Part shown: positions 14,060 through 58,229 of the stretch, one piece after another
How positions within the stretch are numbered: position 1 is the first letter of the stretch
Layout: every line of letters begins with the position of its first letter
DNA from: a virus
Reading direction: 5' to 3' (one strand)
Length of the DNA stretch: 63,002 nucleotides
Virus record (IMG/VR): IMGVR_UViG_3300045988_138661
Notes under the pieces: generated by a model
Database searches by the model: none
What the model was told of the DNA's origin: nothing
The model's input: the letters and a program-made list of their open reading frames with translations, nothing else
Program-made: the position numbers and the translations under genes

Positions 14060-14650
14060 ATGATTATTTGTAAACATTGCGGTCAGCCCATTTCTGATAA
14101 GTCAAAAGTTTGTCCGTTTTGTGGAGGCAATGTAAAGATTCCTTTCTATGATAAGACGTGGTTCCATATTCTCCTTGTGCTTATTATCTTTACGGGAATT
14201 GATTATGTCATTAGGAATCCCAATCCTGAACCCACGGTATATAGCCCTCCGATTGTAGAAAGCGCGGGAGCCTCGTCTCAGAGTTCGGTTGATCCCGTCG
14301 AAGAGACCGATGAGCAGGAAACCGCGGAATACTCATCCGAATCTCTTTCTAAGATGATTGATATGGTAGAAGATTATCCTATTAAGGCTGAGGAAGAGTA
14401 TACCGGTAAGTATATTCAGGTATCAGGATATCTTGACACCGTTGATAGCGATGGTAAATATTTTACTATTGTATCCGATCCTGATGATTTTACTCTCTTA
14501 GATAATATCCATTGGAGTATGGACAAGGACTCTGATGTTTATGATTTCATTAAGAATGCCAAGGAAGGCTCTTATATTACCGTTTGTGGCGAAATCACCG
14601 ATGTAGGCGAAACTATTTATTACATGGGCGACGCTCATTCAGTTCATTAA
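14060..14650 (+). CDS. zinc-ribbon plus TM protein (196 aa)
   Basis: CKHCGQ...CPFCGG then hydrophobic helix. Confidence 0.5.
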   Translation: MIICKHCGQPISDKSKVCPFCGGNVKIPFYDKTWFHILLVLIIFTGIDYVIRNPNPEPTVYSPPIVESAGASSQSSVDPVEETDEQETAEYSSESLSKMIDMVEDYPIKAEEEYTGKYIQVSGYLDTVDSDGKYFTIVSDPDDFTLLDNIHWSMDKDSDVYDFIKNAKEGSYITVCGEITDVGETIYYMGDAHSVH

Positions 14651-25504: not shown

Positions 25505-26611
25505 GTGAGAGGTTTTAAAACTAATGAACTTTGGTTATTTGAATATCTGGTTCGCTCGACACAAGATGAGTTAAGAGAATATGTTGCCGATGTATTGAAA
25601 GCTAAATATACTGAAGTAGTTATTACTAAAGAGTATGTTTGTGCGGTTGGCGATATTCCTATTGCTTTAGTAGCTCATCTTGATACTGTGTTTGAGAAAC
25701 CGGTCAAAGATTTATATTATGATACAAGAAAAAATGTGCTTTGGTCGCCCGATGGTCTTGGCGCAGATGATAGAGCAGGAGTATATGCGATTCTTCATAT
25801 TTTGAGAAATACATCTTTGCGTCCTTCTATTATTTTTACCACTGATGAAGAAATTGGTGGATTGGGCGCCGAAGCATTAGTATTACAATATTTTGAGTGT
25901 CCATTTCCCAATCTGAAATATATTATTCAGTTGGATAGACAAGGCACAAATGATTGTGTGTTTTATGACCTTTACAATCCTAAATTCATTGATTACATTG
26001 AATCTTTTGGATTTGTAGAGGATTTTGGCACGTTTAGTGATATTAGTGTTTTATGTCCTGAATGGAAAATTTGTGGCGTGAATCTTTCAGTAGGTTATAA
26101 AAATGAACATAACCGTATTGAAACATTAAATGCGGGTGCTCTTTTTGATACGATTAATAAGGTAATCCGCATGCTCAAAGAGAAAGATATTCCTAATTTT
26201 GAGTATTATCGTAATTATCATAGTATTTGGTTCGATAATATTTGTAAGAATTTTCCAACTGATGGCGATGGATTCTACGTTCATTGTAGAGGATGCGGTC
26301 AGTTATTTAGTGAATATGAAACATTTCCAGTAAAGGGATTAGATGGACATACATGTTTTTATTGCCCTGATTGTATTCCCAGTAATGTTGAATGGTGTGC
26401 GGAGTGTGAAGAGGCATTTGAGATTGACCCTGCGAACCCACACAGCGAGTATTGTAAAGATTGTATTGGAGGATTAGTCAAATGTCATATGACTTCGACA
26501 TCGAAAGCATTAAAGAACAGTTCAACAAAGTCATCAGTTACTCCCAAGGAATCAGTAATCCAAAAACAGAAGAACTATTCGAAAGATTCCTCGAAGCCAA
26601 AAAAGACTTAA
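25505..26611 (+). CDS. M20/M28/M42-type zinc peptidase-like protein with C-terminal zinc ribbons
   Basis: HLDTV, GADDRAG, TDEEIGG motifs; GTG start; 3-prime end overlaps next gene by ~130 nt. Confidence 0.5.
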   Translation: MRGFKTNELWLFEYLVRSTQDELREYVADVLKAKYTEVVITKEYVCAVGDIPIALVAHLDTVFEKPVKDLYYDTRKNVLWSPDGLGADDRAGVYAILHILRNTSLRPSIIFTTDEEIGGLGAEALVLQYFECPFPNLKYIIQLDRQGTNDCVFYDLYNPKFIDYIESFGFVEDFGTFSDISVLCPEWKICGVNLSVGYKNEHNRIETLNAGALFDTINKVIRMLKEKDIPNFEYYRNYHSIWFDNICKNFPTDGDGFYVHCRGCGQLFSEYETFPVKGLDGHTCFYCPDCIPSNVEWCAECEEAFEIDPANPHSEYCKDCIGGLVKCHMTSTSKALKNSSTKSSVTPKESVIQKQKNYSKDSSKPKKT

Positions 26612-27912
26612 TTAAATTTTTTCACGGTCATTTAATTTATGAATGGCCGGAAAAGGTATCTTTTTCCTTAGATGATAAAACTAAAGAGCATCGTCTTGAA
26701 GAGTTTCTTGAAACAATTAATTATACTTATAATAATGAAGACTTAAAGGATTTTATTTCAGTAAATAAAGAAGGATTCTTTAACAATACAGTTATAGATA
26801 CTTATTTCTATAAAGATAAAAAGATTCCAAGAGGAATGAAATTAGTTAAGGCTTTTAAGTATTTTGAAGAGAATCCACGCTCTTTGGAAGATATTCAGAA
26901 TTACGCAAGTCGTATTATCCAAGAGGACAAGATTGAGGGAACATTATGTTTCTCAGTTCATCCTTTGGATTTTTTAAGCGTAAGTGAAAATACTTATAAT
27001 TGGCGCTCTTGCCATGCACTTGACGGCGAATATAGAGCAGGAAATTTATCTTACATGGTAGATAAAAGCACTTTTATTTGTTATTTGCGCGGAGCAGAGA
27101 ATCAGAAACTTCCGCATTTCCCTGAAGATGTTCTTTGGAATTCTAAGAAATGGCGTATGCTTCTTTACATGGAAGATAAGCGACGTGGTTTAATGGCTGG
27201 TCGTCAATATCCTTTTATGACAACCAATGCTTTAATTAAAATTAAAGATATTATCAATACTTTTGATAAGACTTTTCAGTTGCGTGAATGGGTAGATGGA
27301 GGTATTAATACTGTTTCTAATAGGATGAGCACTACTTCTTTTGATGAAGAAACTATTGGATTATCCGAGACATGGATTCCTATTTTATCTCGTTTATATC
27401 CTATTAGTGATATTGTTGAAGATATTGGCGAGCATACTCTTCAATATAATGATTTGCTTTATTCTTCTTGCTATTTACCCATTTATAGTTTAAAATTGTA
27501 TTATTATCCATTAGAGACTGATCTTCCTCATTGGTCTATTGGTGGCGATGTCCCTTGTTTACAATGCGGTAAAACTATTATCGAAAGTGGAGAATATATG
27601 CGATGCGGAGACTGTGAATTCAATTATGGAGTAAACGAAGATGATAATTACGGTTATTGCGCTTGTTGCGGTTCTCGTATAATCCTTGATGAAGCAAATT
27701 CCGTAGGCGATGAGAATGAATTGGTTTGCGATAGTTGTGCAGATACTTATTGTAAACGATGCGAATGTTGTAATAATTTATATTATACAGAAGATATTCA
27801 CTATCATAAAGGAACTGATATGTATTTATGTCCTTGGTGTTTTAGAGATGCTGATGAAGAAAAAGTTAATAATTTTAGGTCTTTAAAAGACTTTATACAT
27901 AATTTTAGTTAA
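26482..27912 (+). CDS. large hypothetical protein with C-terminal zinc ribbons; paralog of 22349 CDS
   Basis: start moved to ATG after RBS ggagga (track start 26461). Confidence 0.55.
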   Translation: MSYDFDIESIKEQFNKVISYSQGISNPKTEELFERFLEAKKDLIKFFHGHLIYEWPEKVSFSLDDKTKEHRLEEFLETINYTYNNEDLKDFISVNKEGFFNNTVIDTYFYKDKKIPRGMKLVKAFKYFEENPRSLEDIQNYASRIIQEDKIEGTLCFSVHPLDFLSVSENTYNWRSCHALDGEYRAGNLSYMVDKSTFICYLRGAENQKLPHFPEDVLWNSKKWRMLLYMEDKRRGLMAGRQYPFMTTNALIKIKDIINTFDKTFQLREWVDGGINTVSNRMSTTSFDEETIGLSETWIPILSRLYPISDIVEDIGEHTLQYNDLLYSSCYLPIYSLKLYYYPLETDLPHWSIGGDVPCLQCGKTIIESGEYMRCGDCEFNYGVNEDDNYGYCACCGSRIILDEANSVGDENELVCDSCADTYCKRCECCNNLYYTEDIHYHKGTDMYLCPWCFRDADEEKVNNFRSLKDFIHNFS

Positions 27913-28832: not shown

Positions 28833-29555
28833 ATGGCTGGTAGTCGTATTTCATGGAGCGATGTTCGCGCTCTATATGATACTTTAAATACTGCTTAGAC
28901 TCGTTTTTCTCAATCTCGCACGGCTGCTCCCTCAAATGAGGGGCGTCGTACGAGAGAAAGTGACATTACTACTTTAAAAAATGAAATTGAAAATTTAAGA
29001 AATGTTTCTTATGTAGGAACTTAGGCTACTTTTTCTAATTTTACCGCTCCAAGAGCTAATGAACTTATGAAACGAGTCCCTTTAGAGGAAATTAGAAGTA
29101 AACTTGATACTATAAATGGCATTTGCGCCTATGATGGAGCGAATTATACAAGCAATAATGGTTATCGTGGTGCTAACTATACAAGTAATAATAGTCAACG
29201 TTCTTCTTATTATTCAAGTAATGATGCTCAACGTTCTTCTTATTATTCAAGTAATAATGCTCAACGTGCTTCAGATTATTCAAGTAATAATGCTCAACGT
29301 TCTTCAGATTATTCAAGTAATAATGCTCAACGTTCTTCAAATTATTCAAGTAACTATACTTATTATACTGCTAATTATTCAAGTAATAATGGTCATAGAT
29401 CTGCTAACTATAGTAGTAATAATGGTAATAGATCTTCTAACTATAGTAGTAATAATTCTCAACGTTCTTCAAATTATTCAAGTAATTATACTTATAGAAG
29501 TGCTTATGCTTCTAGAAGTTCAAATCGTAGTGGCGCTGGTAGAGTACGCTCTTAA
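28833..29555 (+). CDS. repeat-rich Ser/Asn/Tyr peptide (candidate RiPP precursor, ~240 aa incl. two in-frame TAG); about eleven ~11-aa repeats (consensus NYSSNNAQRSS)
   Basis: ATG 28833 after RBS aaggagag is in frame with track ORF 29067..29555 through TAGs at 28896 and 29022. Confidence 0.5.
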
Positions 29556-29586
29556 TTTTTTGAGAAAAAGGAGTTTTATAATATAA

Positions 29587-31086
29587 ATGTTTAAAGAAAT
29601 GGATATTAGAGCAATATCTTTAGTTTCTTCATGTGGATGTAATTTACATTGTAAATATTGTCTTATTGAGAATACTTTAAATAATTGCTCTGCAAATTTA
29701 CAACATGAAACTATTAAAGCTTTAAATGATGGTACTTTTTTAAATAATGTAAAAGGTATTTTTAAACGTTTAAATCTTGATAGATATAAAATAGAATGTT
29801 TTACTTTATGGGGTCAAGAGCCTACATTGACATTACATCTTCTTACTGATCATTTGGAAGATTGGTTTAATTATTTCCCAAATATTAATCATATTGACTA
29901 TTCTACTAATGGGATGGATTTTCCTGAAAGAACTGTTAATTTTATTAAAAAGGTTGATGAATTAGCAAATAATGAACTTGCTTTAGAAGTTCAATTCTCT
30001 TATGATGGCACTTACTCAACCAATAATATTAGAAATGCTAATAATGAAAAAATCTTTGAGACTGCTTCAACTGTAATTAAAGAATTAAATAAAATTAAAT
30101 TTCATAATGTAAATGTATCTATTCAATTACATGGTGTTCTTTCTGGAGCTTTAATTCATGAACTTAATACAACTCAAAAAGTTCATGATTATTATAAAGA
30201 TTTAGATAATTTTGGATTTGAATTAGCTGATATTAATCTTAATTAGAGAGTTGAAGTAAATAGTAGTGTATCTATTTGCCCTGAGAATCCAAGAGATGGA
30301 TCAGTTGATGAACGTATTGAATATGAGTCTTTCTTACAACGCATTGTTAATATTGATGTAAGTGATTTTCATGACCCACATCTTCCAGTTAGTATTATTA
30401 TTGGTTATCGTCATCTTTATGAAGAAGTATTTTCTGATTTACATGGATTTACTGGAGAAGATCGTCCAATTACGCCCCAAGAATTAATGCGATTAGTTAT
30501 GGAAGGAAATCAAGAAGCAATTACTGTAGCTTCAAGAAATAATTTTTGTAGTGGTAATTTTAATGAATTAAAATTACTTTATGATGGTACTATGATGTCT
30601 TGTCAAAACTTTATGTTTGATCTTGATGGTAATAATGTTAAAGATGATGGTACTATTGGAGCACAATTGAGAAAAGACACTCGTCGCACTAAAACTGATT
30701 GCATTAATCTTTTAACTGATAGTGAAGAAGATATTAATAAAGTTATATATAAATATAATATGTATAAAACACATTCCTTCCCATTTATGTTTCAAGCAAC
30801 TGTAAATACTTTACAAATGCTTAATGAATGCAATCAATTAAATTCTATTTACAAGTATAATCCTGATAAATTATTAAGATTGGCATTAATTGCAACAAAA
30901 ATTGATGCTTGTACTTATAATAATTTTATTTCTTCTGGTAGCGCGTTGTTAAGAAGTGTAGGCACTTTAAGAACTCAATCAGCACTATTTATGTATGTAG
31001 ATAGAGAAAATAATTTACTTAAACCCGAAGAAGAATGGTTCCGAAATACTGAAAATATGAATGAATATAGAGGAGAAAGTAATTAA
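29587..31086 (+). CDS. radical SAM enzyme (~499 aa, one in-frame TAG at 30244)
   Basis: CGCNLHCKYC = CX3CX2C motif near N-terminus; continuous frame with track ORF 30487..31086. Confidence 0.6.
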
Positions 31087-32489
31087 TGAATATTAGTGAA
31101 GGTTGTCAATTAGATAATAATAAATATTTTGAAAAATTTATAGATAATTATATTTTTAATAGGGATCACCAAGAGGAAGGATACTGGATTAATGGAGAGT
31201 CTTTTGAGCTTATTATAAGACCCGAATGTAATCAACAATGTGAATATTGTTATGTTGCACGGTATGGAGATAAACTCTATCCGATGGAGAAACGCGCCGA
31301 TAAGGAAACTCTTGTTCATAATACAGATATTATTTTGAATTATATCTTTAAAGAAAGAAAAGTTTTATTTCATGAAATGGAACTTTTTGCTGGAGATTTA
31401 TTTTATGATGATATTGGATTTGAAATTCTCGAATTAATGTTTAAATATTATAAAGAATTATTTGATGAACATCCAAATATTTTTAATTTCCATCCTCGTA
31501 TTGTAATTCCTAATAATTTTAGTTTTGCTATTGATGATAAAAAAGCTAAAAAAATGGAAGAGCTTTTAGCTAAATTTAAAACTATCAATATGGAAATAAG
31601 CCTTTCTTGTTCTATAGATGGACCTTATAATAGTGTGCGCGAGCGCGATAAAGATGATAGTTATTATACTAAAATTCTTGAATTCCTTCAAAGAAATCCT
31701 TGTGGTATTCATCCTATGATTTCTCCAAGTAATATTGAGAGTGCTATTAAGAATTTTGATTGGTGGGACGAACAATATGAAAAGTATAATCTTGCTGGTG
31801 AAGACATTCATGATTTTCAACCTATGTATTTGGAAGTCCGCAATGATGAATGGACTGATGAGAAATTAGATCATTATCTTGAATTTTTAACTCATATGCT
31901 TGAAGTAAGATTTCATAAAAATGGTGAGTCTGTAGATAAATTGGCAAGACATATTTTCTTAGGAGATGGAAAAGAAGGTTCTTTACCTTGTCTTGGTAAT
32001 TATGACCCTATTGGATTAACTTCTACTTGGAATAGTGAAGAATATACTTGCGCGATTTCGCATTAGACTTGTCTTTATGTGGCGAGTTTTGAATTTGCGC
32101 CTTGCCATAGAACTTCTTATCCTCAGTTTCTTGGTGGACGTCTTGATGTAAAAGATGACAAAGTAGTTGGTATTACTGCAATTAATCCTACTGTGTATAG
32201 TGTAATTAAAACGAATAATACACATATGAATATTGGTTGTTTAACTTGTCCTTTTGATCCTTATTGTTTAAAAGGATGTTTAGGCGCTCAGTATGAAGCC
32301 ACAGGTGATTTATTTGTTCCCGGTGAAAGCGTTTGTAAATTACATAAAACACATTTAACTTTTTTAGTAAAGACTTATTGTGAGTTGGGATTAACTAAAA
32401 TTGCAGTTGAAAAAAATTATTTTAAGAGTGAAGCAGATAAAGAAAAATGGCTTACTTTATGTCGTAAATTGGGGTATTATAATGATTGA
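31086..32489 (+). CDS. radical SAM enzyme with SPASM-like C-terminal Cys cluster (~467 aa, TAG at 32064)
   Basis: CNQQCEYC (CX3CX2C); C-terminal CLTCPFDPYCLKGCLGAQ. Confidence 0.6.
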
Positions 32490-32784
32490 AGAAATGAAAA
32501 GACAAATTCAACACTTAGATGATACTTTTGATCCTTCTAATGTTGGAGATTATAAAGATTTATTATATGTAATCTATTTAAATTGGATTGAAAATAATGG
32601 AGAAAACGAAGAAGTCAATTCTCTTATTAACAATTTAATTAAAAGAATTATTGATTCTAGCATTAATGATAATAATAATTGTGATAATTGTAATGAAGAT
32701 GAAGATCCTAATATGAGTGAAGATTATTTAATTTATCGCCATTTCTTAGGATATAAAATTCCTGGCTATTGGCGTAATCATTAA
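32486..32784 (+). CDS. hypothetical acidic protein (~99 aa)
   Basis: ATGA overlap. Confidence 0.45.
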
Positions 32785-33372
32785 TGTTAATTAATTTATA
32801 TAATGCTCGTCAAACTTTATTAAGATCAGTAAAGTTTGACGAGCGTGAATGCGATGATATTGTTTTTGGATTAAATTTTCCAAAAGAAATTACTTTTTGC
32901 AAAATTGTAAATAATTCAAATGATATAGAATATTCTTCATTAAATTATCTATATAGTCAATTAAAAGATTTAGAATATAAAGATATAAAAATTATTGAAT
33001 TAGTTTTTAATCAAAAACAAAAATTTACGTTTGAATCTACAGTAAAATCTATTTTTTATAGAACAATGTTATATTCAAGTTAGGGACAATTGGAATTTAA
33101 ATTATATTTAACTTTACGATTTGAAGAAGAACATCCAATTATTTACGATAAAGAAGAATAGATTTTAAAGTGTGACAAAAATTGTAAACAGTTAAATAGA
33201 AAAATACATCGTTGTGAATTTTTTCATAGTGATTTAAATGATATAAATGAAATTTGTACGGAATGTTTTTTGTAGGAAAGAGATAACCAAATAAAAGAAT
33301 TGGTTAATTATAATAGAGATATTATAAATGTTTTGGAGAATAAATATGGAAATAGATAGAACTAAAAATTAT
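32784..33372 (+). CDS. hypothetical protein (~196 aa with four in-frame TAG); Cys pairs
   Basis: manual codon walk: only TAG interruptions until TAA. Confidence 0.4.
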
Positions 33373-35423
33373 CAAGGGATTCCTCCTTATACTAATCCAA
33401 TATGGAAATCGGTTTATGATGGTGTTAGTTTAGAAATGCATATTGTAGATCATTGTAATCTTAATTGCGCAGGATGTAATCATTTTTCCCCTTTAGCAGA
33501 ACCTTGGTATATTGATTTAGATGATTTCCGTGATCAGATTACTTTTGCTTATAAAAAAATTCCAAATATAAAACTTTTTATGATTTTAGGTGGAGAACCT
33601 ACTTTGCATCCAAAATTATTTGAAATATGTTAGATTGCTAGAGAAGTTTTCCCAAAAAATAAAGTAGAAATTAAAATATTAAGCAATGGGTGTCATTTAC
33701 AAGATGCTTTTAAACATGAGAAAGAATATCAAGATATGGGAGTAATATTTGATATTACTACTTATGGGAAATATACTGATCATAAAGCGGTAGAATATTT
33801 AGACAGTCATGGTTTAGGTTTTAATCATAATTCAAGATTATTTATGCGACAATAGCTTGTAAATGAAGCAGGAACTACTGATATAAATGAAGTATATTTT
33901 CATAAATGCCCGCATTAGTTACCTTGTTTTACTTTAAAAAATTATAAAATTTATATATGTCCTTTTTCTGCACATTTGGATATTTATAGAAAAAAATATA
34001 ATGTAAATATTCCAGAAGATGAAAGTGATTATTTGCGATTAGAGGATATAAATAATTTAGATGATTTACATAATTTTATTTTTAAGCCTAAAAATATTTG
34101 TAGATATTGCGATGGAACTATGTCTAAAGCCTCTTGGATTTGGCACAAATATTATGATACAAAATCGGAATTTATAGTTCCAATGGAAGATGCTTATTTT
34201 AGAGATTATGATTTTTATTTAAAATTAGTTAATGATAAAGAAAATTTTTTAGAAAATTATTAGTTATTTAAAGAAAACAGATGCCCAATTGAATTTAGAT
34301 ATAATACTTATTATTTAAAAAAATGTTTTACTCGTTTTATTGATGGAAAAATGGATATTATAATACCTTATTATAATATGAATGATTAGCAAATTATTAA
34401 TTTGTATAATAATTTATCTACCCAAACAATTATAAAAGATTGTTGTGTATATTTTATTAGCGACCATTCTTTCTATGATAAAAAACTTATTGAGATATTT
34501 GATGAAGCGAGTTTTCCTTGTTTCTTTTTTAAGAATTTAAAACGAAAAGGACCAGGTCTAACTCGTAATTTAGGATTAGAATATTCTTTTAATAAATATG
34601 TGTTATTTTGGGATTCTGATGATTTATTCCCAAATGATAATGTTTTAGAAATTTTATATAATTCAATAAAACATAATGAGAAAGATTTTGGAGTATTTAA
34701 AATAGCTAATACTGATAAATCAGTTGAAAAGATTAATTTAATTCTTAAAAGAGATTTTCTTAATAAAAATAATATAAAATATTCAAAATTTTTCTTTGGA
34801 GAAGACAGTATTTTCTTGGATAGATGTGATATTTATGGTGAATCTTATGAGTTAGAAGACTAGAATTTAGGTCTTTATATAACTTAGTTAGAAGACAATC
34901 CTAATTGTTTATCTCATTCTAATTCTAACATGGTAATTACAGCATATATTAATAAAATAATTGTATTTTTTGCTAATTTTATTGATGTTTTGAAATTAGA
35001 AAATATTGATGAAAATCGTAAACAAAGTACTTTAAGACGGAATCTTTATAGAATTATTAATGAAATAAAATCAATAAGTGATTTAGATTCTTCTTTTTAT
35101 GGATATGAAAATAATTATTTTTTAGAAAAAATTCTTCTTTTAATTTATTATATTTTATATACTATGTATAATTTATATAGTAACAAAGAAGATTTTAATA
35201 ATATTCCCAATTTGTGTAATTTAGATAAACAAATTATAGAAGATATCAAAAGTTAGAAAATTAAATTTAGTCTTCTAAGAGGAGAATGTATAACTAATTT
35301 TGATGATATTAAAAATGAAATTTATCCATTGTTAAATTATCTTAACAATGAATTATGCTATGTGCCTACTTATGAATGGTTTCTGAATTATTTAGATGGA
35401 AAAGGAGAGAGTATTTATGATTG
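33328..35423 (+). CDS. radical SAM domain fused to GT2-like glycosyltransferase-like region (~698 codons, eight in-frame TAG)
   Basis: CNLNCAGC CX3CX2C and GGEPTLHP near N-terminus; later GPGLTRNLG..YVLFWDSDDLF resembles GT2 DxD region; track ORFs 33328,33976,34402,34930 all in frame 1 separated only by TAG. Confidence 0.5.
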
Positions 35424-35599
35424 AAACTTATCAAGAATATAAAGAAAAAGTTTATTTTCTTCTAAATAATTTTTTAGATTTTACTAAAGGAGATAAACCT
35501 TATTTATTTAATATGCCTTCAAAATTAGGCAATCTTCCTAATCTAAATGAATATTTATATTTTTGTTTTAATAAATCTGATGCAGGAGAAAATAAATGA
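35418..35599 (+). CDS. hypothetical small protein (60 aa)
   Basis: overlapping start, TGA stop. Confidence 0.4.
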
Positions 35600-36132
35600 G
35601 GTTTACTGATTATCATTTTGGATAGGCAGAGTCTGACTTTTGGACTTTATTAAAAGAATTTCTATTAAGGTTTGATCCCAATAGTATTTATGATTTTTGG
35701 ATTTTATTTATTTATTTTTAGTTAGGTATTATTAGAAAAGATAGATTTATCATTTATTAGGTATAGTATATTTTAAAAGAAAAAATAGATTTTGAAGAAA
35801 TTAATGAAGTAAATTTTAATACAATTATTCCAATAGAAAAGATAAATTTATCTAGTTTAAAAGATTGTATTTGGATAAGCTATTGGATTTGTTAGTATAA
35901 TTATTAGAATGATGAAAATTTAATTTTAATTTATAGTGAGAAAATATTTAATAATCTTACTAATATTTTTGAGCCGGATATTGTTATAGATATTCCAATA
36001 GTGTAGTAGAGTAATAAAATATGTAAAATGTGCGGTTTAGAGTCTAAATCTAATGGATAGAATATACCATTTTTTAAAATAAATGATAATAAATATTTAT
36101 GTCCTAATTGTTATTATTTATTAAAATTAAAT
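35596..36132 (+). CDS. hypothetical protein (~178 aa, nine in-frame TAG), C-terminal CxxC pairs
   Basis: ATGA overlap with upstream TGA; manual codon walk ends at TAA. Confidence 0.4.
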
Positions 36133-36231
36133 GAATAATTATTAAAACCTACTTTTATAGTAGGTTTTAATTGATTTTTAATAAAAAATAATGTATTATA
36201 ATTATAAGATAAATGAAAAGGGTGTGTTTAT

Positions 36232-38016
36232 GTGAATAATTATAATCAACATTATAAAGAAATAAGTCCTATTGAGACTGTTAATAATATTAAAAATTTT
36301 TTAGAAGGACGCGGATTTACTTGTGTTGAGGAAGCTTTACGACAAGAACAATCAACTACTTGGAGTCTTGTATTAAATCTTGAATACAAAGGACATTTTG
36401 TGCTAAAAACTTATGGCAAAGGTGTTACAAAAGAATTCGCCAGAGCTTCTGGTTATGCGGAAATGTATGAGCGTTTTTGTAATGGAATGCACTATCTTTG
36501 TAATTCTTTTCTTTGTGCGGAAAAAATTGAATTAAATAGAAAAAATTATGGTTATTCTTTGTTTAAAAATGAAAAGCCTTTAAGTTATAAAGAGGCACTT
36601 GGAGGAGAAGATACTCTTTTATATAAACTTTTTGATCGTTTGAATAAGAAAGATAATGGTTTATTAGAGGATTATTTTAAAACTATTTATAATAATGAAT
36701 TTTTTGGAATACCATTTAAAGGAGTCAACATTAATAAAACTTTATATATGGATCCTCGTCTTCTTCAACGTTATCATGGTAGTTCGGGAATGGCAGCCGG
36801 CAATACTTTTAATGAAGCCTTAAATCAAGGTTTATCTGAAATTTTCGAGCATTATGTTTTAAGTAATTTTTATATTGATATTGATAATAAAGATTTTTAT
36901 TTTTATGATACAGATAGTATTAAAGATGAAAAATTAAAAAATATTATTAGTGCGATTAAATCTCATAATAATAACTTTTATATTATTGATATGTCAAGAA
37001 CTTATAATGTGCCTGTTATGGTAGCAATTTTGATTAATAAATATAGTGGTACTGTAGCTATTAATTTTGGTGCTTTCCCTGTATTTGAAATTGCAGTTGA
37101 GCGAGTTTGTACTGAAATGTATCAAAATTGTTTTTCTTTTGATACAAGAAAAACTTCAGTTGTATCTCCGTATTATTCTTTAGATAAAGAAGATATGGTT
37201 ATAGATGGCGGTTCTTGTATTACAAATCTTAATACTTTTCCTGAGAGTTTATTCTTGAATAAGAAATTTGTAAATACTATTAATAAAGATGTATTTTTAT
37301 CTTATACTGATAAAAATTACTCTAATGATGAAATCTTAGAGCATAATAAAAAGATTGCTACTAATATTGGAGCAGATATTTATTGTGCTGATGTATCTTT
37401 AATTGATACCGTATCTGCGATTAGTATTTATGTTGATAATCTTGACGGGCTATGGAAATCTTTCTTTGATAGATGCCAAGGAGTTAAAGAAACTGGAGAA
37501 GCAATTACTATAACTAAAAATAAACATTTGGCCATTAAAAACTATTTAAATAATAAAGATAAAGTATATGATGTAATTAAATATTGTCTTGATTATTATA
37601 ATATTACTTTTGACAAAATTGTAGATAGATTTTGTGGTTTACTTACTCATGGAGATCAATTAGTTGCTTATAATAATAAAAATATATTATTAACACCTAA
37701 TGAGATGTTTGTTAAAAACCTTTATATGGATGCAACAGGATATTTATTAGAAGATGAAGGATTTTCTTTAGATATTTCAGTTAGTTGTTTTTATACTTAT
37801 TATAAAAAATATTTAACTTTATTAGCATATGTTCACAGTAGAAAATATACTAAAGAAGATATGATTAAAATTTTCAAAGAATTTGATTATACTTTTACTG
37901 ATGAAGATTTTAAACATATTACGGATAGAAAATATTTAGTAGAAAAATGTATTTTAGAGCCTATGTATAATACATTTAGAAGCAATGATTTTAAAGAAAT
38001 GATTAAAAATTATTAA
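36232..38016 (+). CDS. YcaO-domain protein (594 aa)
   Basis: N-terminal YGKGVTKEFARASGYAEMYERF matches YcaO signature GKG.T...A..SA..E..ER. Confidence 0.6.
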   Translation: MNNYNQHYKEISPIETVNNIKNFLEGRGFTCVEEALRQEQSTTWSLVLNLEYKGHFVLKTYGKGVTKEFARASGYAEMYERFCNGMHYLCNSFLCAEKIELNRKNYGYSLFKNEKPLSYKEALGGEDTLLYKLFDRLNKKDNGLLEDYFKTIYNNEFFGIPFKGVNINKTLYMDPRLLQRYHGSSGMAAGNTFNEALNQGLSEIFEHYVLSNFYIDIDNKDFYFYDTDSIKDEKLKNIISAIKSHNNNFYIIDMSRTYNVPVMVAILINKYSGTVAINFGAFPVFEIAVERVCTEMYQNCFSFDTRKTSVVSPYYSLDKEDMVIDGGSCITNLNTFPESLFLNKKFVNTINKDVFLSYTDKNYSNDEILEHNKKIATNIGADIYCADVSLIDTVSAISIYVDNLDGLWKSFFDRCQGVKETGEAITITKNKHLAIKNYLNNKDKVYDVIKYCLDYYNITFDKIVDRFCGLLTHGDQLVAYNNKNILLTPNEMFVKNLYMDATGYLLEDEGFSLDISVSCFYTYYKKYLTLLAYVHSRKYTKEDMIKIFKEFDYTFTDEDFKHITDRKYLVEKCILEPMYNTFRSNDFKEMIKNY

Positions 38017-38027
38017 TAGGAGATTAT

Positions 38028-38906
38028 ATGAATATTAATTTTAATTGCCCTGAATTTTACTATGGGATTGAAGTATATGATAAACTTTTTGAATTACAAG
38101 AAATTGCTCCAGAAGCATTTTATCCAGAAGCCAAGGTAAAGTATATATATGGCTGTCTTCCTAATATGATTTGGAATGGTGGCGGATTTATGGATGGACG
38201 TCCAGAGCATAATATTGATTATCTTTGCGCAATGCGTGATTTTTATGAAAAAAATAATATTATTTTACGTTTTACATTGACAAATCCGCTTTTAGAAGAA
38301 ACTGACGTTTATGATAGATACTGTAATGAAATGTTAAAACTTTTTGATAATGGTATTAATGAAATTATTGTTAATTCTCCTATTCTTGAGCGCTATCTTC
38401 GAGACAAATTTCCTAATTATAAGTTGACTAAAAGTATTACGGCAGCAAAAGAAGATTATGATTTTGTAAAAGCTCTTGATAATTATGAAAGCATTGTCCT
38501 TCCTCGTCGTCACAATAGAAATTGGGAACTTCTTGATTCTATTCCAAAAGATAAAAGAGAGAAAATTGAAATTCTTGCTGATGAAAGTTGTCCTATTGAT
38601 TGTCCTCGTCTTTATACTCATTACAATGTTTTTGCAAATTTTAGTTTGTTTAAAAAAATTGATGACTCTCAGCGTAATTGTACTACTATGAAAAATAATG
38701 GCGCAGTTTTTCCTGAAATTGATAATAAAGATATGATTTATATGGATGAAATTTTAAATACTTATTTACCAAAAGGATATAATAATTTTAAGATTTCTGG
38801 GCGCAATTGCGCTGACCATTGTGCAAAATCTATTACTCCGTATTTTTTTAAACCAGAATATCAATTAGAAGGTTTTTGCGAGTTGCTCGATATTGGTTTG
38901 AGTTGA
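38028..38906 (+). CDS. hypothetical protein (292 aa), Cys motifs CPIDCP
   Basis: RBS taggagat. Confidence 0.5.
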   Translation: MNINFNCPEFYYGIEVYDKLFELQEIAPEAFYPEAKVKYIYGCLPNMIWNGGGFMDGRPEHNIDYLCAMRDFYEKNNIILRFTLTNPLLEETDVYDRYCNEMLKLFDNGINEIIVNSPILERYLRDKFPNYKLTKSITAAKEDYDFVKALDNYESIVLPRRHNRNWELLDSIPKDKREKIEILADESCPIDCPRLYTHYNVFANFSLFKKIDDSQRNCTTMKNNGAVFPEIDNKDMIYMDEILNTYLPKGYNNFKISGRNCADHCAKSITPYFFKPEYQLEGFCELLDIGLS

Positions 38907-39030
38907 TTTTAACTCCTTACTATTTTATTTAGTAAGGAGTTTTTTTTTTATTTAACCAGATTAAATTAATGACTTCTTATAAATTTTTAAATTTTATAGA
39001 AATAATAAAATTTATAAGGAGGTCATTTAA

Positions 39031-42336: not shown

Positions 42337-42508
42337 AAAATTTTTTGACATTTTAAAAAAAATAATATATAATATATTTATAAAATAAAGAAAGACCTTT
42401 ACAGCAAAAATAACTTCCAGAATAAACTAATGATTAAGTCATAATCCTTTAAGATTAAAATAATGGTTCAACTCCATTTTCCGGACAAAGTTAAGGTCTT
42501 GTTTTTAT

Positions 42509-43002: not shown

Positions 43003-43550
43003 GGGAGTGTAGCTCAGTTGGTTAGAGCACGCGGCTGTTTACTTGACCTTATCATTTTCTTATAAAAAAATGAAATGAATAGTAAACAAAAAGGTAATAT
43101 TACCGAGCTTGAAACAATGTTAGCATTTATGAAACTTGGTTATAATGTTCTTACTCCTTACGGAGATTGTGAGCGTTATGATTTTGTGGTTGATGTAAAT
43201 GGTAAATTTATTAGAATTCAAGCTAAAACATCGCGAACCGAAGATGAAGGAGCTTCTTTTATTTTTTCTGGTAGAAGTTGCCATAGAAAAGATGGAAGAA
43301 TAGTTCATCATCAATATACTAACGAAGAAATTGATTACTTCGTAACTACTTTTAATGGAAAATGTTATTTGATTCCAGTGGAAGAGTGCGGAGCAGATAA
43401 AAGACTTCGTATTCTTCCACCTAAAAACAATCAAGTAAGAGGTATTACTTGGGCGAAAGATTATGAGTTGGAGGAAGTAGTAAGAAAATGGTAAGCTGAT
43501 GTGTAAGCAACCGCGGTTTGTCGTGAGTTCGAGTCTCTCCTCTCCCGCCA
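43003..43550 (+). tRNA. tRNA gene (Asp-GUC if spliced) split in the anticodon loop by a ~469-nt insertion
   Basis: 5-prime half gggagtgtagctcagttggttagagcacgcgg + 3-prime half ccgcg..gagttcgagtctc..ctctccc g cca; anticodon stems cgcgg/ccgcg complementary. Confidence 0.5.
43075..43494 (+). CDS. ORF inside the tRNA insertion; possible PD-(D/E)xK-type nuclease (139 aa)
   Basis: YDFVVDVNGKFIRIQAK resembles D..(D/E)xK core; location inside a tRNA gene. Confidence 0.35.
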   Translation: MNSKQKGNITELETMLAFMKLGYNVLTPYGDCERYDFVVDVNGKFIRIQAKTSRTEDEGASFIFSGRSCHRKDGRIVHHQYTNEEIDYFVTTFNGKCYLIPVEECGADKRLRILPPKNNQVRGITWAKDYELEEVVRKW

Positions 43551-45787: not shown

Positions 45788-45860
45788 AATATTTTAGCTC
45801 ATTTGGTAGAGCATTTGTCTGTTAAACAAACTGTAGTTGGTTCAAGTCCAACAAATATTT
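45788..45860 (+). tRNA. tRNA-Asn (GUU), all-AU acceptor stem, no encoded CCA
   Basis: aatattt/aaatatt acceptor, D-arm gctcatttggtagagc, loop ctGTTaa, T-loop ttcaagt. Confidence 0.6.
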
Positions 45861-45905
45861 CATTTGTGTCTTGTAAATTAAAATAATCCAAAAGGAGATA
45901 TCTAA

Positions 45906-46399: not shown

Positions 46400-46808
46400 A
46401 AAGACCAACAAATGAGGAACCTCTTTGCTGCTCGAGGCTGTTGGAATGCCTGTTAGAAAGGCTACTCTTCTATATATTTAGATATATAGAAACAAAAGAC
46501 TATACAATAGAGAGAGTCTTTTACATCTAGTTCATTTTCTTACTTATCTTTCTGTTTGATTTCCCCTTTCGTTTGATATATAGATTGTTGTTTTCTCTCA
46601 CTTCCATAGAAATGAATTGTTTTTCTACTCTCTATTTTGTTTCATAAAATTAAATAAAAAAGGAGGATTATCTGATATGTTTAAAGATGTTGATGATTTG
46701 ATTTTCGGCGATGAGCGTGAATTTTGTCCTAGCGAACGATAAGCGCGGTCGCCTACCTAATGCTACCATAGGCTGGTTCCAAGTCCAGAAAAGCAGAGGA
46801 GGTAGAAT

Positions 46809-47046: not shown

Positions 47047-47134
47047 GGAGCTATGGTGTAATGGTATCACAAAAGCCTGCTAAGCTTTCCTACCTTTATA
47101 GGTAGTCCGCGTTCGACTCGCGGTGGCTCCGCCA
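47047..47134 (+). tRNA. tRNA-Ser (GCU), class II
   Basis: loop ctGCTaa, long variable arm ctacctttataggtag, T-loop ttcgact, G73 CCA. Confidence 0.7.
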
Positions 47135-47161
47135 TTAAATTTTAAATTAAGAGGATTAAGT

Positions 47162-48301
47162 ATGAATATTGTAAATGCTGGTTCTCGCTATCAGATTTAT
47201 GGCGAGGACGTTAAGACTTATAAGCGACTTCCGCTTATGTCTTTTGAAATCTGTTTTAATAAAATGGCAGGTTTTTATCTTTCTTCTCGTCCAGACCTTG
47301 CGGTCAATGAGGAAAAGATTTATGGTAATCACGAAGTTAAAGTCAATAAAGTGCTTAATTCTTTTAAGCATTCAGACCGTAATCTTGGTGTTATTTTAAG
47401 TGGGCAGAAGGGTATTGGTAAGTCATTGTTTGCTCGTATTCTTTCTCATCATGCTATTGAAGATGGTTATCCTGTTCTCTTGGCTAATACTTATATGCCT
47501 GGTATTGCGGATTTTATTTCCAGTATTGAACAGGAAGTTGTAATCATTTTTGATGAGTTTGAAAAGAATTTCTCTAATAGCCCTGACGATCATGCGGGCC
47601 CCTCTCCGCAGGAGGAAATGCTTTCTCTTTTTGATGGTCTTGATAATGGTAAGAAGCTTTTCGTTATTACTTGTAATGAAGTTGATCGACTTAGCACTTA
47701 TCTATTGAATCGGCCTGGTCGTTTTCATTATCATTTTAAGATCACTTATCCAACAGAGGAAGAGATTGTAGAATATCTTACTGATAAGGTTAAGCCTAAA
47801 TATGCGAGTGGTATTAAGGATATTGTGAATTTTTCTCGTACTACCAATATGACTTATGATTATCTTCGCGCGATTGCTTTTGAACTTAATCAGGGTTATG
47901 GTGTGGCAGAAACTCTTGAAGACCTTAATATTTCTCAAACTTCCAATGTTCGTTTCAATATCACTATTACTACGGTAAATGGTGATGTGTATAATACCTA
48001 TGGTGTTTCAGTTAATTTGTTTAGCAATCCTAATGCCAATCATCAAAGATGGTATGATGGTTATACCTCGGATAGTAAGACTATTCGTTATGCCTTGACT
48101 CCTGAATCAATTAAGATTGAAAAGGGTATGATTACGGCCGATCCGAAAAAGGTTGAAATTTACATTGATCCTGACGACTTTTGGACGATCAGCAATGAGG
48201 AAAAGCGTAAGGAAGCTATCGAAAAGGCTAAAAATGAGCGCGTGATTAAGTCTGTTGTTTTAACTAAGGTCGCAAATACTATTGAACAGTATCTTTATTA
48301 A
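47162..48301 (+). CDS. AAA-family ATPase (~380 aa)
   Basis: Walker A GQKGIGKS, Walker B VIIFDEFE, second-region-of-homology NRPGRFHYHF; start moved from 47123 (overlaps tRNA) to ATG after RBS aagaggat. Confidence 0.65.
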   Translation: MNIVNAGSRYQIYGEDVKTYKRLPLMSFEICFNKMAGFYLSSRPDLAVNEEKIYGNHEVKVNKVLNSFKHSDRNLGVILSGQKGIGKSLFARILSHHAIEDGYPVLLANTYMPGIADFISSIEQEVVIIFDEFEKNFSNSPDDHAGPSPQEEMLSLFDGLDNGKKLFVITCNEVDRLSTYLLNRPGRFHYHFKITYPTEEEIVEYLTDKVKPKYASGIKDIVNFSRTTNMTYDYLRAIAFELNQGYGVAETLEDLNISQTSNVRFNITITTVNGDVYNTYGVSVNLFSNPNANHQRWYDGYTSDSKTIRYALTPESIKIEKGMITADPKKVEIYIDPDDFWTISNEEKRKEAIEKAKNERVIKSVVLTKVANTIEQYLY

Positions 48302-50366: not shown

Positions 50367-50561
50367 TAAAACTTTTTGACATTTTAAAAAAAATATTATA
50401 TAATAAATATATAAGTTAAAGACATTAACAGCAATTTTGATTGCATGCCAAGCCGGAAGTGTAGGTTCGATTCCTTTCATCCCCTGCCATTATATAGGGG
50501 ATTAGTTCAATGGTAGAACGCCGTAAATCAATGGTGTCTTGTTCTAATAAGGAGAAATATT

Positions 50562-50845: not shown

Positions 50846-50922
50846 TAAGACCAGAAGTAACTGCAATTAAAACATCTGACTTAAAATCCGACTCCTTTAA
50901 CAAGGTCTGGTCTTGTTTATAT

Positions 50923-50998
50923 CCGGGTGTAGTTCAGTTGGAAGAACGCTTGATTTGGGTTCAAGAGGCCGGACGTTCAAGTCGTCTCACTCGGACCA
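50923..50998 (+). tRNA. tRNA-Pro (UGG)
   Basis: D-arm gttcagttggaagaac, loop ttTGGgt, T-loop ttcaagt, A73 CCA. Confidence 0.7.
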
Positions 50999-51191
50999 TA
51001 AGACACATACAGCAATTCTTTCATTAGAAAGGTATACAGGTTCAAATCCTGTAAACTCCAATTGGGGTTTTGGCGAAATTGGTTAACGCACATAACTTAA
51101 AATTATGTTTCTAATGTGTCTAGTTTGAAATAACTTTTTTGATTTTTTATAAAAAATATAATATAATATATATAGAAAGTTAAGAAAGGAA

Positions 51192-51480: not shown

Positions 51481-51730
51481 CCGAACGCAGGATTGGTTCG
51501 ATTCCAATAATCAGCTGTAATTAGTGTAATGGTTGAGCACAGCGTTCGCGTCTTAAATATATCAAAGACACCACAAACTGCGAATTTTCTATAACAGAAG
51601 ATACAGAGATATTGTTTTACCAATAATTTTTGATTGCCTATTGAAGGTGTAGTCTGTTTGGGGTAAGAGAGAATTAATCGACAAATAGATGAAATGAATT
51701 GATTGAAATTCTTTGGTGTCTTGTTTTATA

Positions 51731-51928
51731 CGGCCGTCGCCAAAATGGTAAGGCACAGGACTTTCTCAAAATCAGTTAAATGAGTTATATAATATGACGG
51801 GGTTAAGTAGTATTATATAAGTTCTGTTAGTAGGCTTCCGGTTCTATAAAACCGAGAATGTTGGTGCAAGTCCAACTTTTGAGCCCTGACTCCTGCATCT
51901 GCTGGTTCGAGTCCAGCCGGCCGTGCCA
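51731..51928 (+). tRNA. tRNA gene split in anticodon loop by ~120-145-nt insertion (Gln CUG/UUG or Glu UUC depending on junction)
   Basis: 5-prime half acggccg tc gcc aaaatggtaa ggc a cagga ct..; 3-prime half ..tcctg catct gctgg ttcgagt ccagc cggccgt g cca; all stems complementary. Confidence 0.45.
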
Positions 51929-52190: not shown

Positions 52191-52262
52191 TGAGGGGTAG
52201 CATAGCGGCAAATGCGCTGGTCTCTAAAACCAGATAAGTGGGATCGACACCCACCCCCTCCG
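52191..52262 (+). tRNA. suppressor tRNA, anticodon CUA (reads UAG); Gln-like features
   Basis: acceptor tgagggg/cccctcc (1-72 mismatch), U8 A9, D-arm gcat-agcggcaa-atgc, anticodon arm ctggt-ctCTAaa-accag, 4-nt variable loop, T-arm gtggg-atcgaca-cccac, G73; no encoded CCA. Confidence 0.65.
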
Positions 52263-52496
52263 CGGTGCTAAAAACAAAACCTCCTCGTGGTAGCACTGGG
52301 TAATGCTAATTTGTTTATAAAGGTAATAAAGGCAATATGTATAAAAGTCATTGATAAGTCCTTTTATACGATAGGAAGTAGGATTAGAAGCGTCCATCTT
52401 TTAAAGAGCGAAATGCGGCGATCGGGTATTTCCTTGGTCCAGTAGACACACTATCGGAGGTTGTGGGTTAACCTAATTAAAACCCTCAAAATAAAA

Positions 52497-56990: not shown

Positions 56991-58229
56991 ATGGCTAGTA
57001 AGACCTTAAATACTCGCATCCAAATTCGCAATGACCTCGCGGCGACCTGGACTGAAAAAAATCCTGTGCTCCTTAAAGGTGAAATGGGTGTCGAGACTGA
57101 TACTCGTAAAATTAAAATTGGCGATGGCTTAAGTAAGTGGTCTGCTCTTGGTTATTCTGGGGCAGATGTTGCTGATATTGAAAAAGTTATTGCCGACAAT
57201 CGTGATACTACCTATTCTTTAGAACCAGTTGCTGATCAAACTGATGCTCAAGCTCTTGGTACAATTGAGTCTCCTAAAGATGGTGACACTGCCATTATTA
57301 AGCGTGTTATTTCTGGCGACAAAGCTTCTTATACCGCTTATGTTTATGATGGCACTTGGAAAGCAATGGATGGCAACTATAATGCTAATAATGTTTACTT
57401 TGATAAAGATTTGACTTATACGGCTAATATTGGCGTTAAGACTGTTCCCGATTCTGGCTCCGGCACTATTGCAGCTGCTGGTAAGAATGTTCAACAAGTT
57501 TTTGCTGATATTCTTGCTAAAGAAGAGAATCCTGTCACTACTCAACCTAGTGCTTCTATGAGCTCTTCTAATATTGGAGCTTATGAGGCAGGTACTGATG
57601 TAACTATTCAATACAGTATTTCTACCAATCCTGGTTCTTATACTTATGGACCTAATCCAACAGGTGTTACTTTCTCTGGTCATAAGGCTACTTTTAATGG
57701 TGAAACAGTTACTGGTGCTTCTGGAACCTTTACATCTGTTAAAGTTACTGATTCTACTAATTTAAGTATTAGTGGTTCTGTTGATTATTCTAACGGTGAA
57801 ATTCCTGTGACCAATTTAGGTAATAACTATACTTCTGGTCAGATTAAGACCGGTACCAAGACTCTTTCTAAGGGTACTTTGACTGGTTATCGTAACTGGT
57901 TCTATGGTTATAAAGCTGGCGGCGCTACTATTGATGTTTCTGCACTTGATTCTGCTAAGATTCGTGCTTTAAAGGCACAAAATGGTAGTTTCCCTGCTAC
58001 TCTTAGTACAAACAAAATGCAACAGATGTTCTTTGCCATTCCAAAAGGCAGAAAAACTGAAGTGTCTGTTGCTAATAATGTTAATGGTGCTCCTTGTACT
58101 GTTACTAAAGTAACTGATGTTATGGTTGAAGGTGCTAATGGCTTTACTGCTGTTGCCTATGATGTCTGGTATGTTAATAATGCAGCTGCTGACGGTGGCG
58201 CAAATACATATAAGATTACTGTTAAGTAA
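56991..58229 (+). CDS. tail fibre-like protein (412 aa)
   Basis: RBS taggagga; N-terminal KIGDGLSKWSALGY motif; Ser/Thr/Gly-rich beta-rich sequence. Confidence 0.55.
   Translation: MASKTLNTRIQIRNDLAATWTEKNPVLLKGEMGVETDTRKIKIGDGLSKWSALGYSGADVADIEKVIADNRDTTYSLEPVADQTDAQALGTIESPKDGDTAIIKRVISGDKASYTAYVYDGTWKAMDGNYNANNVYFDKDLTYTANIGVKTVPDSGSGTIAAAGKNVQQVFADILAKEENPVTTQPSASMSSSNIGAYEAGTDVTIQYSISTNPGSYTYGPNPTGVTFSGHKATFNGETVTGASGTFTSVKVTDSTNLSISGSVDYSNGEIPVTNLGNNYTSGQIKTGTKTLSKGTLTGYRNWFYGYKAGGATIDVSALDSAKIRALKAQNGSFPATLSTNKMQQMFFAIPKGRKTEVSVANNVNGAPCTVTKVTDVMVEGANGFTAVAYDVWYVNNAAADGGANTYKITVK

Follow-up and report, generated by a model that had tools for sequence, protein, structure and literature searches.

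The 63,002-nt virus record IMGVR_UViG_3300045988_138661 of IMG/VR, hereafter the window (the whole stretch of DNA analysed), is phage-like and carries on its plus strand, between 42.4 and 53 kb, an array of 18-20 tRNAs including a CUA suppressor. Within this array, positions 51000-51123 (124 nt) encode a complete class-II cloverleaf in permuted order (variable-arm hairpin, T arm, looped acceptor stem, D arm, anticodon arm), enclosed by a short conserved clamp, which we call the frame. The frame recurs in many phages and is genomically linked to the gene of a predicted Ro60-fold protein. Because its clamp is linked to a Ro60-like protein, the element looks like a novel branch of the Y RNAs and not like a tRNA to be cut and rejoined, and we consider that it is probably a Y-RNA-like tRNA mimic of the YrlA type. 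The gene reads 3' half then 5' half because the acceptor end of the interior tRNA is closed by a loop and the RNA ends are placed in the variable region.

The element begins one nucleotide past the CCA of a tRNA-Pro and is composed of the following parts.

51000-51008, plus strand: 5' strand of the frame, AAGACACAT (from the sequence, the minimum free energy (MFE) fold and recurrence of the motif in phage loci)
51009-51016, plus strand: single-stranded conserved motif ACAGCAAT, unpaired in all MFE folds and proposed to be a protein-recognition element
51017-51032, plus strand: variable-arm hairpin TCTTTC-ATTA-GAAAGG (MFE fold), with a counterpart hairpin of 5-8 bp in 8/8 homologues
51036-51052, plus strand: T arm ACAGG-TTCAAAT-CCTGT, 100% paired, with 3 covarying pairs across homologues
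51053-51070, plus strand: loop-closed acceptor stem, 7/8 acceptor pairs covarying among homologues
51053-51059, plus strand: acceptor 3' strand AAACTCC (sequence)
51060-51063, plus strand: acceptor loop of 4 nt, an A73-like A followed by ATT (sequence)
51064-51070, plus strand: acceptor 5' strand GGGGTTT (sequence)
51073-51089, plus strand: D arm GCG-AAATTGGTTAA-CGC of class-II type with a 3-bp stem (sequence, Rfam tRNA model and folds)
51091-51107, plus strand: anticodon arm CATAA-CTTAAAA-TTATG, 5/5 stem pairs covarying
51108-51123, plus strand: linker TTTCTA, 3' strand of the frame ATGTGTCT (51114-51121), an A and a trailing G (51123) (sequence, MFE fold)

The closing helix of 8 bp is formed by 51001-51008 and 51114-51121, and the anticodon UAA lies at 51098-51100 in an RNA loop that reads CUUAAAA. 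An earlier note on this DNA had described 51020-51110 as a possible circularly permuted or fragmentary tRNA of Leu type. The segments that it quoted (T arm, acceptor strands, anticodon arm) are all present where it placed them, and the 3' half does stand upstream of a matching 5' half, the two being complementary and jointly giving the full cloverleaf. The core is indeed within that interval, but the unit is larger, including the variable-arm hairpin and the closing helix, and rather than stray fragments it represents a complete tRNA-like gene that is circularly permuted. The acceptor strands pair across 7 positions, as had been noticed, although imperfectly, with 6 Watson-Crick pairs and one G.U (G3.U70). 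No CCA is encoded at the acceptor end.

The permuted cloverleaf is the MFE fold of 50996-51128 with no constraints imposed. The Rfam tRNA model aligns each half apart, 51064-51135 to model positions 1-63 (26.9 bits) and 50990-51060 to model positions 11-71 (15.1 bits). When the halves are put in normal order, ARAGORN at default stringency gives tRNA-Leu(taa) for 205 of 248 junction choices, which bears out the Leu-type UAA assignment; explicit junction constructs were used, as tandem-duplicated candidates are uninformative with a program that accepts introns in the anticodon loop only. The A73 and the D loop are also Leu-like. G3.U70 together with A73 is the classical alanine identity set; here G3.U70 and the A73-like base (51053-51070) sit on a Leu-like class-II body, a combination that is kept in 9/9 relatives.

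Complete permuted tRNAs are under structural selection. Eight distinct ones were compared (the window and loci L109, L271, L324, L101, L320, L293 and L292), and all eight show the same six-helix architecture when folded without constraints, with class-II-like bodies (3-bp D stem, long variable hairpin) in 8/8. From the alignment, RNAalifold recovers five helices (those of the frame, T arm, acceptor, D arm and anticodon arm), and compensatory double changes are found in 20 of the 29 pairs that it predicts in them, the frame helix (helix 1) being 95% paired with 3 covarying pairs. Overall, 93.1% of alignment cells are paired, versus 71.2% in shuffled alignments (0/500 shuffles match) and 30-48% with slid partners. 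The anticodons among the eight are GUA (twice), UAA, UGA, GAA and UUU, in addition to a CAUAAAA loop. A nearly identical element is present in nine gut-phage contigs (~65-197 kb, ~93% identical), in all of which the anticodon is UGA, UAA being found in the window only. The other differences between the window and these relatives are structure-neutral or structure-improving, for example an A-U pair in the T stem versus G.U in the nine relatives, and an A-U pair in the closing helix versus an A.C mismatch.

The consensus of the frame is 5' AAGACAY-NN-ACAGCAAU ... payload ... NN-RUGUCUU-G 3'. Six frames are present in the window, all on the plus strand and within the tRNA array. Besides 51000-51123, they are listed below together with a promoter and a related module.

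42392-42500, plus strand: frame AAGACCTT/AAGGTCTT plus G, with ACAGCAAA, around an odd tRNA (42416-42486) with a 6-nt anticodon loop
45757-45873, plus strand: frame around a normally ordered, CCA-less tRNA-Asn(GTT) at 45788-45861
50376-50404, plus strand: sigma-70-type promoter TTGACA-17-TATAAT (12/12), driving the module at 50419
50419-50541, plus strand: frame AAGACATTA/TGGTGTCTT plus G, with ACAGCAAT, a hairpin, T arm, acceptor and D arm (sequence, MFE fold)
50847-50915, plus strand: short frame AAGACCAGA/TCTGGTCTT plus G, with ACTGCAAT and a payload with an anticodon-loop-like CTTAAAA
51480-51552, plus strand: degenerate permuted tRNA-like module with closing helix CGAACGC/GCGTTCG and T arm ATTGG-TTCGATT-CCAAT, without the canonical frame motif
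51565-51723, plus strand: frame AAGACACCA/TGGTGTCTT plus G, with the variant motif ACTGCGAAT and a payload of ~140 nt

The helix interiors of these frames covary (CCTT/AAGG, CACA/TGTG, CCAGA/TCTGG, CACCA/TGGTG). On inspection, a consistent pairing partner of ACAGCAAU was not found in payload, linker or trailer. The unframed tRNAs of the window almost all have an encoded CCA, whereas the framed ones do not. The earlier note had pointed to the same half order at 50431-50535, right after a promoter; both observations hold, as this segment belongs to the same family as 51000-51123 and is preceded by the sigma-70-type promoter. It cannot be a tRNA because it has no anticodon arm. Its acceptor is ATCCCCT-GCCA-TTATAT-AGGGGAT and its organization is YrlA-like, and relatives have another payload in a frame with a compensatory helix change. 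The T arm at 51483-51516, which had been taken for a lone fragment, is real but sits in the degenerate module, closed by a helix of 7-9 bp.

The survey of the frame in other genomes combined motif scans of viral contigs with a relaxed detector run over 1.89 Mb of fetched phage DNA, and identified 361 frames (279 unique) versus 17 in a shuffled control, again with covarying helix interiors. The most frequent motif forms among unique frames are ACAGCAAT (171), ACAGCAAA (52) and ACAGCAAC (23), and the trailing G, a base that the search never demanded, occurs in 45 of 46 frames. Frames are co-oriented with local tRNAs (242/244); their start lies within 12 nt of a tRNA 3' end in 20% of cases versus 0.26% of random positions, further frames start just downstream of -10 boxes, and a tRNA is found within 40 nt downstream in 39%. 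In cellular genomes (596 Gb), complete frames account for 5 of 120 motif matches, and those named are metagenome-assembled genomes (MAGs) of gut Clostridia. Independently of the frame, a scan of the window and fetched loci for the permuted core, a T arm followed by the 3' strand, loop and 5' strand of an acceptor and then by a D arm, gave 19 matches versus 0.4 in shuffles, the true ones all lying in frames; the arrangement is not the chance complementarity that the earlier note had considered. Overall, the arrangement recurs in at least 30 distinct elements, each inside a frame.

The payloads of the 279 unique frames comprise 21 normally ordered tRNAs (Ile-GAU, Asn-GUU, Lys-UUU, Arg-UCU and others), 25 permuted tRNA-like modules without anticodon arm (50419-50541 type), at least 6 complete permuted tRNAs and 227 others. 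An anticodon-arm-like hairpin is present in 54 of these 227, some with T-arm-type loops such as TTCGAAT, versus 5.6 in shuffles (maximum 13); recurrent loops among the 227 are CUGUUAA, CUUUUAA, UUUGGGU and CUGCAAA. As a separate observation, some pyrimidine-rich payloads (L027, L039, L067, L068, L045) carry CCUCC or ACCUCCUUU, a motif type present in 21 of the 227; these are anti-Shine-Dalgarno-like and could pair with ribosome-binding sites.

Clustering of the open reading frames (ORFs) around frames revealed that the commonest neighbour is a protein of ~490 aa with DUF2828 and DUF7788 (vWA) domains, in 33 subclusters at 90% identity. Its gene is present in 46 of 116 frame loci versus 4 of 90 frame-less viral loci (odds ratio 14, p = 8e-10), on the strand of the frames in 47/47 cases and at a median of 396 nt from the nearest one. 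The same holds in the cellular-genome loci, where the gene accompanies 5/5 complete frames versus 1/115 of the others. An AlphaFold2 model of the DUF2828-type protein (predicted local distance difference test 79.8, predicted template-modelling (TM) score 0.72) has as its nine best PDB matches full-length Ro60/Rsr proteins, including that of Thermus phage phiLo (E 1e-7 to 7e-6, TM 0.38-0.56). Ro-like homologues occur in at least 711 phage records, and mycobacteriophage annotations read 'Ro-like RNA binding protein'. The Ro-like gp247 of Bacillus phage Tsamsa is preceded by an array of 19 tRNAs and several frames, and the 300 nt upstream of the Ro-like gp57 of Listeria phage A511 contain three frames in tandem, whose helices covary.

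No Ro-like gene was found within the window by tblastn or by Pfam and PHROGs scans of 40 ORFs, and three large unannotated window ORFs gave no match to the Ro-like profile in hhalign. A 190,948-bp human-gut contig collinear with the end of the window harbors a 508-aa DUF2828+DUF7788 gene ~8.4 kb beyond it, on the same strand and with a tRNA directly upstream; it was located by walking from the last gene of the window, an earlier peptide scan of the relatives' contigs having missed it. Just upstream of the Ro-like gene, this extended contig also has a gene with a GmrSD_N domain. Other neighbours include an AAA-type ATPase encoded inside the tRNA array of the window (47123-48301; phrog_2376, E 1e-103) and kept beside frames in 14 loci, the gene order in L116 and L329 being ATPase, Ro-like gene, frames. 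In A511, the tRNA array is separated from the three frames and the Ro-like gene by a match to ROOL RNA (L328 3495-4046, corresponding to A511 ~26,196-26,747; 87.5 bits versus a threshold of 99.1, E 2e-16). The most transcribed region of the P100-like Listeria phage CKA15, given as 'unannotated', is 26,236-26,727 (PMC12282133); it coincides with this ROOL RNA and therefore was not credited to the frames as evidence of their expression.

In YrlA Y RNAs of bacteria the modules are ordered terminal stem, variable arm, T arm, closed acceptor stem and D arm, and a mycobacterial YrlA undergoes RNase P cleavage, 3' trimming and CCA addition in vitro (PMC4201824). A phage Ro60 binds Y-like RNAs encoded upstream of its own gene and assembles with the host PNPase (PMC12135203). 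The framed RNAs have in common with YrlA (RF02553) and with the phiLo Yrl RNAs (PMC12135203) ends that are paired into a terminal stem beside a conserved single-stranded motif, the order variable arm, T arm, closed acceptor stem and D arm of the tRNA-like interior, genes that share the strand of a Ro60-family gene and typically lie close to it, and presence in phages; a local alignment of the Rfam YrlA model spans 50454-50525 in the order T arm, acceptor stem, D arm. They differ by the motif, ACAGCAAU with an AAGAC/GUCUU-G helix instead of GNCGAA(N)G or CGAA, and by the DUF2828-type Ro-like partner. Moreover, frames are multi-copy in each genome and interspersed in tRNA arrays, their cargo varies in a modular way, from bare anticodon arms and modules without anticodon arm to whole tRNAs in either order, and 51000-51123 retains a complete canonical anticodon arm.

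The suggestion of a permuted tRNA implied a cut-and-rejoin maturation of the algal or archaeal type, and likenesses to such genes do exist: the 3' half comes first in a single transcript, a short linker connects the acceptor ends, the leader pairs with the trailer, and the halves make a full cloverleaf. However, several features do not conform to it. Circularly permuted tRNA genes are known in Cyanidioschyzon merolae, some green algae and Thermofilum pendens, and a bulge-helix-bulge, made by leader and trailer where processing occurs, consists of two 3-nt bulges 4 bp apart; here, none is present in any fold inspected, the junction of leader and trailer being in all copies an uninterrupted plain helix of 7-9 bp flanked by the 8-nt ACAGCAAU and single strands of ~6-12 nt. 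The break lies in the variable region, inside a sequence-conserved frame which also holds non-tRNA payloads, and the anticodon varies among close relatives. The setting is a bacteriophage, and neither an archaeal/eukaryal-type splicing endonuclease, nor an RtcB/Rnl RNA ligase, nor an integrase was found in the 40 window ORFs scanned with Pfam and PHROGs. A circular intermediate is not needed here, and the module order is that of the bacterial YrlA RNAs (PMC4201824), in a frame that is genomically tied to a Ro60-like protein.

Other known RNAs were also considered. The product of a permuted tRNA-like gene is known in the two-piece transfer-messenger RNA (tmRNA) from permuted ssrA genes of alpha-proteobacteria and some cyanobacteria, which consists of two base-paired pieces with the acceptor linker excised, whereas the present element has no tag reading frame and no pseudoknots. 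A tmRNA was rejected, as ARAGORN finds none, the element is only 124 nt long, and the sole Rfam tmRNA match (7 bits) is on the 50419 module. At gathering and permissive thresholds, no Rfam family covers the frame, hammerhead, twister, pistol, hatchet and HDV ribozymes being unmatched. The idea of an RNA circularised by flanking self-cleaving ribozymes and RtcB was dropped because none of these families matches the frame.

If the element is a Y-RNA-like mimic, its RNA, whose exact ends and downstream function we infer, would be small, stable and non-coding. The frame (terminal helix, ACAGCAAU and unpaired 3' G) may be the docking site for the Ro60-like DUF2828 + vWA protein of the phage, as the gene linkage suggests, and its tRNA-shaped interior would act as effector. 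Judging from Ro-Y RNA-PNPase complexes, this interior might recruit factors that recognise tRNAs, or titrate them, for example RNase P, synthetases, modification enzymes or anticodon nucleases; alternatively, it could serve to tether the Ro-like ring to host RNA-decay enzymes. The permutation would require no cutting and re-joining, and if RNase P and 3' trimming open the acceptor loop, the acceptor stem and the frame helix would still hold both pieces together.

Several observations weigh against this interpretation. ACAGCAAU is not the motif published for Rsr, GNCGAA(N)G, and ACAGCGAA or ACTGCGAA occur as rare variants only; the Rfam YrlA model gives only 17.5 bits for 50419-50541, with a threshold of 69, and no match to 51000-51123. 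Frames also enclose good, apparently functional tRNAs (the tRNA-Asn scores 66.8 bits), which a pure mimic would not need, and the anticodon arm stays canonical in the complete permuted forms (7-nt loop, U33, purine 37), so that this covarying arm could mean that the anticodon is used. The Ro-like gene of this phage is linked but not adjacent, at ~18 kb from the tRNA array, and for ~60% of frame loci the ~5-14 kb fetched contain no such gene. Finally, no frame was found within 3 kb of 21 of 23 independently found Ro-like genes of other lineages. The link is therefore lineage-specific, holding for one lineage only, namely phages of Firmicutes hosts or gut Clostridia MAGs together with uncultured gut phages. 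The Rfam YrlA model has no match beside the DUF2828-type gene in mycobacteriophage Vetrix, and a bridge between YrlA and this gene is therefore not established.

A genuine decoding tRNA made from a permuted gene, in which RNase P and 3' processing open the acceptor loop and a host enzyme adds CCA, appears unlikely to us. Such a tRNA would work in two pieces, held together by the acceptor stem and by a frame helix that projects from the variable region, or in one piece, once some nuclease and ligase have removed the frame. The un-permuted call of tRNA-Leu(UAA), the Leu-like A73 and D loop, and the canonical loop and fully covarying stem of the anticodon arm are consistent with decoding, as are the share of UUA among Leu codons (36%) in a phage whose array has no canonical Leu-UAA or Ser-UGA tRNA, the bona fide CCA-less tRNAs which need release from frames by RNase P/Z, and the position of the break in the variable region, a part of class-II tRNAs in which additional helices are tolerated. 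Two Tyr-GUA versions have the same anticodon arm despite different acceptor stems, and precedents exist in two-piece tmRNA and in the processing of YrlA in vitro (PMC4201824). The non-redundancy of the anticodon was itself judged uninformative as evidence of decoding. However, phages that are ~93% identical differ in the anticodon (UAA or UGA) while the body is unchanged, Phe (GAA) and Lys (UUU) anticodons occur on the same class-II body, and G3.U70, an alanine identity mark, is at odds with a Leu body. The permuted copy is redundant with a canonical tRNA in the two best-sampled arrays (L293 Leu-UAA, L320 Tyr-GUA), and most family members are bare anticodon arms or have no anticodon arm. The lack of an encoded CCA, unlike in unframed tRNAs, and of a ligase or endonuclease among the 40 scanned ORFs also do not favor decoding. 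A broader possibility, to which we give similarly limited credence, is that the Ro60-like ring and the framed RNAs display chosen tRNA parts in a modular fashion (bare anticodon arms of Asn, Lys, Pro and Cys type, elbow modules, whole tRNAs), either as decoys or sponges for host anticodon nucleases and other tRNA-targeting defences, or as Ro-chaperoned two-piece tRNAs that decode. Either case, if true, would represent a new class of phage ribonucleoprotein acting on translation, and should framed two-piece tRNAs truly decode, the switching between UAA, UGA and GAA on a Leu-like G3.U70 body would amount to deliberate codon re-targeting.

Less probable still is that the frame is a Ro-independent processing or stability cassette of the tRNA-array transcripts, a terminal clamp that would set the RNA ends, keep exonucleases off or guide a host RNase, with the permuted tRNA as one tolerated cargo. 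Such a role would agree with frames beginning at transcription starts or right behind tRNA 3' ends and often preceding a tRNA, with conservation of the outer helix sequence and 3' G as an end-recognising nuclease would require, with the many frame loci that lack a Ro-like gene in the fetched DNA, and with further processing ribozyme candidates in the same array, but it leaves unexplained the strong, strand-consistent linkage to the Ro-like gene and the frequency of tRNA parts among the cargoes, and no candidate nuclease was identified. We regard as very improbable that the element is non-functional debris, either a decaying rearranged tRNA pseudogene or the remnant of attachment (att) sites which the earlier note had proposed as an alternative. 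The A.C mismatch in the relatives' closing helix, the G.U in the acceptor stem, the missing CCA and the unstable anticodon could be read as decay. Against this, the element is kept in nine related contigs with structure-neutral changes only, every helix shows compensatory changes across eight diverged homologues, and the arrangement is always found in a frame. Moreover, both halves are present and complementary, unlike in att remnants, where one fragment matching a host tRNA 3' end would be expected beside an integrase, and no integrase was detected in the sampled ORFs.

It is already known that tRNA-mimicking Y RNAs lie beside Ro genes, including in phages. The conserved frame, its multi-copy siting in tRNA arrays, its interchangeable cargoes of tRNA parts, the versions with a complete anticodon arm and the association with a DUF2828-type Ro-like protein appear undescribed, and no report of permuted tRNAs in phages or of the frame motif was found in the searchable literature. 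The framed RNAs are missed by both Rfam and ARAGORN, and where tRNA halves appear split or in reverse order in a phage genome, annotation as a pseudogene or att site should be avoided. Ro60 and Y RNAs are conserved from bacteria to humans, and one phage lineage seems to have expanded the Y-RNA idea into hundreds of small RNAs with one clamp and swappable tRNA parts. As the phages with the Ro60-like protein include the cultured and tractable Bacillus phage Tsamsa and Listeria phage A511/P100, the role of tRNA shape in a Ro-Y RNA particle is directly testable.

Some tRNAs of the array also present unusual features. The CUA suppressor tRNA (52191-52263) has no encoded CCA and is immediately followed at 52264-52318 by an HDV-F-prausnitzii match (27.7 bits, threshold 44), a layout that fits the 'theta ribozyme' arrangement published for stop-recoding gut phages (PMC10879173). 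Another sub-threshold match, to twister-P1, lies at 46754-46804 (41.1 bits versus 67.2, E 3e-6), just upstream of a ribosome-binding site and an ORF. The tRNA-Asp(GTC) at 43003-43550 is interrupted in its anticodon loop by a 469-nt insert coding for a PD-(D/E)XK endonuclease (43075-43494; Pfam PDDEXK_5, E 1e-31), a family which recurs near frames in 13 loci; the insert is probably an intron with a homing endonuclease. The tRNA-Glu(TTC) at 51730-51928 has a 123-nt anticodon-loop insert, too short for a group I intron, with tRNA-like hairpins (a CTCAAAA/TTTTGAG helix, CCGGTT-CTATAAA-AACCG and GTTGG-TGCAAGT-CCAAC), and the relative L109 has at ~6600-6770 a tRNA-Pro with a ~95-nt insert of D-like and T-like hairpins. 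In both cases one tRNA may be nested in another; excision of the inner part by RNase P/Z, if it occurs, would leave the outer halves with 3'-OH and 5'-P ends that suit an Rnl-type ligase.

Outside the array, several genes with an Mtd_N domain (major tropism determinant) are present at 56991-58229 and in L353, which suggest targets of a diversity-generating retroelement. The region 29500-39000 is very AT-rich (GC 22-28%) and codes for two radical-SAM proteins, a YcaO cyclodehydratase and a peptidase-like protein; it looks like a cluster for a ribosomally synthesized and post-translationally modified peptide (RiPP) or for nucleotide modification. Finally, a small protein with a zinc ribbon and a tRNA_anti-like OB fold (Pfam PF12869, E 5e-7), encoded at 14060-14650, could bind anticodon-like loops.

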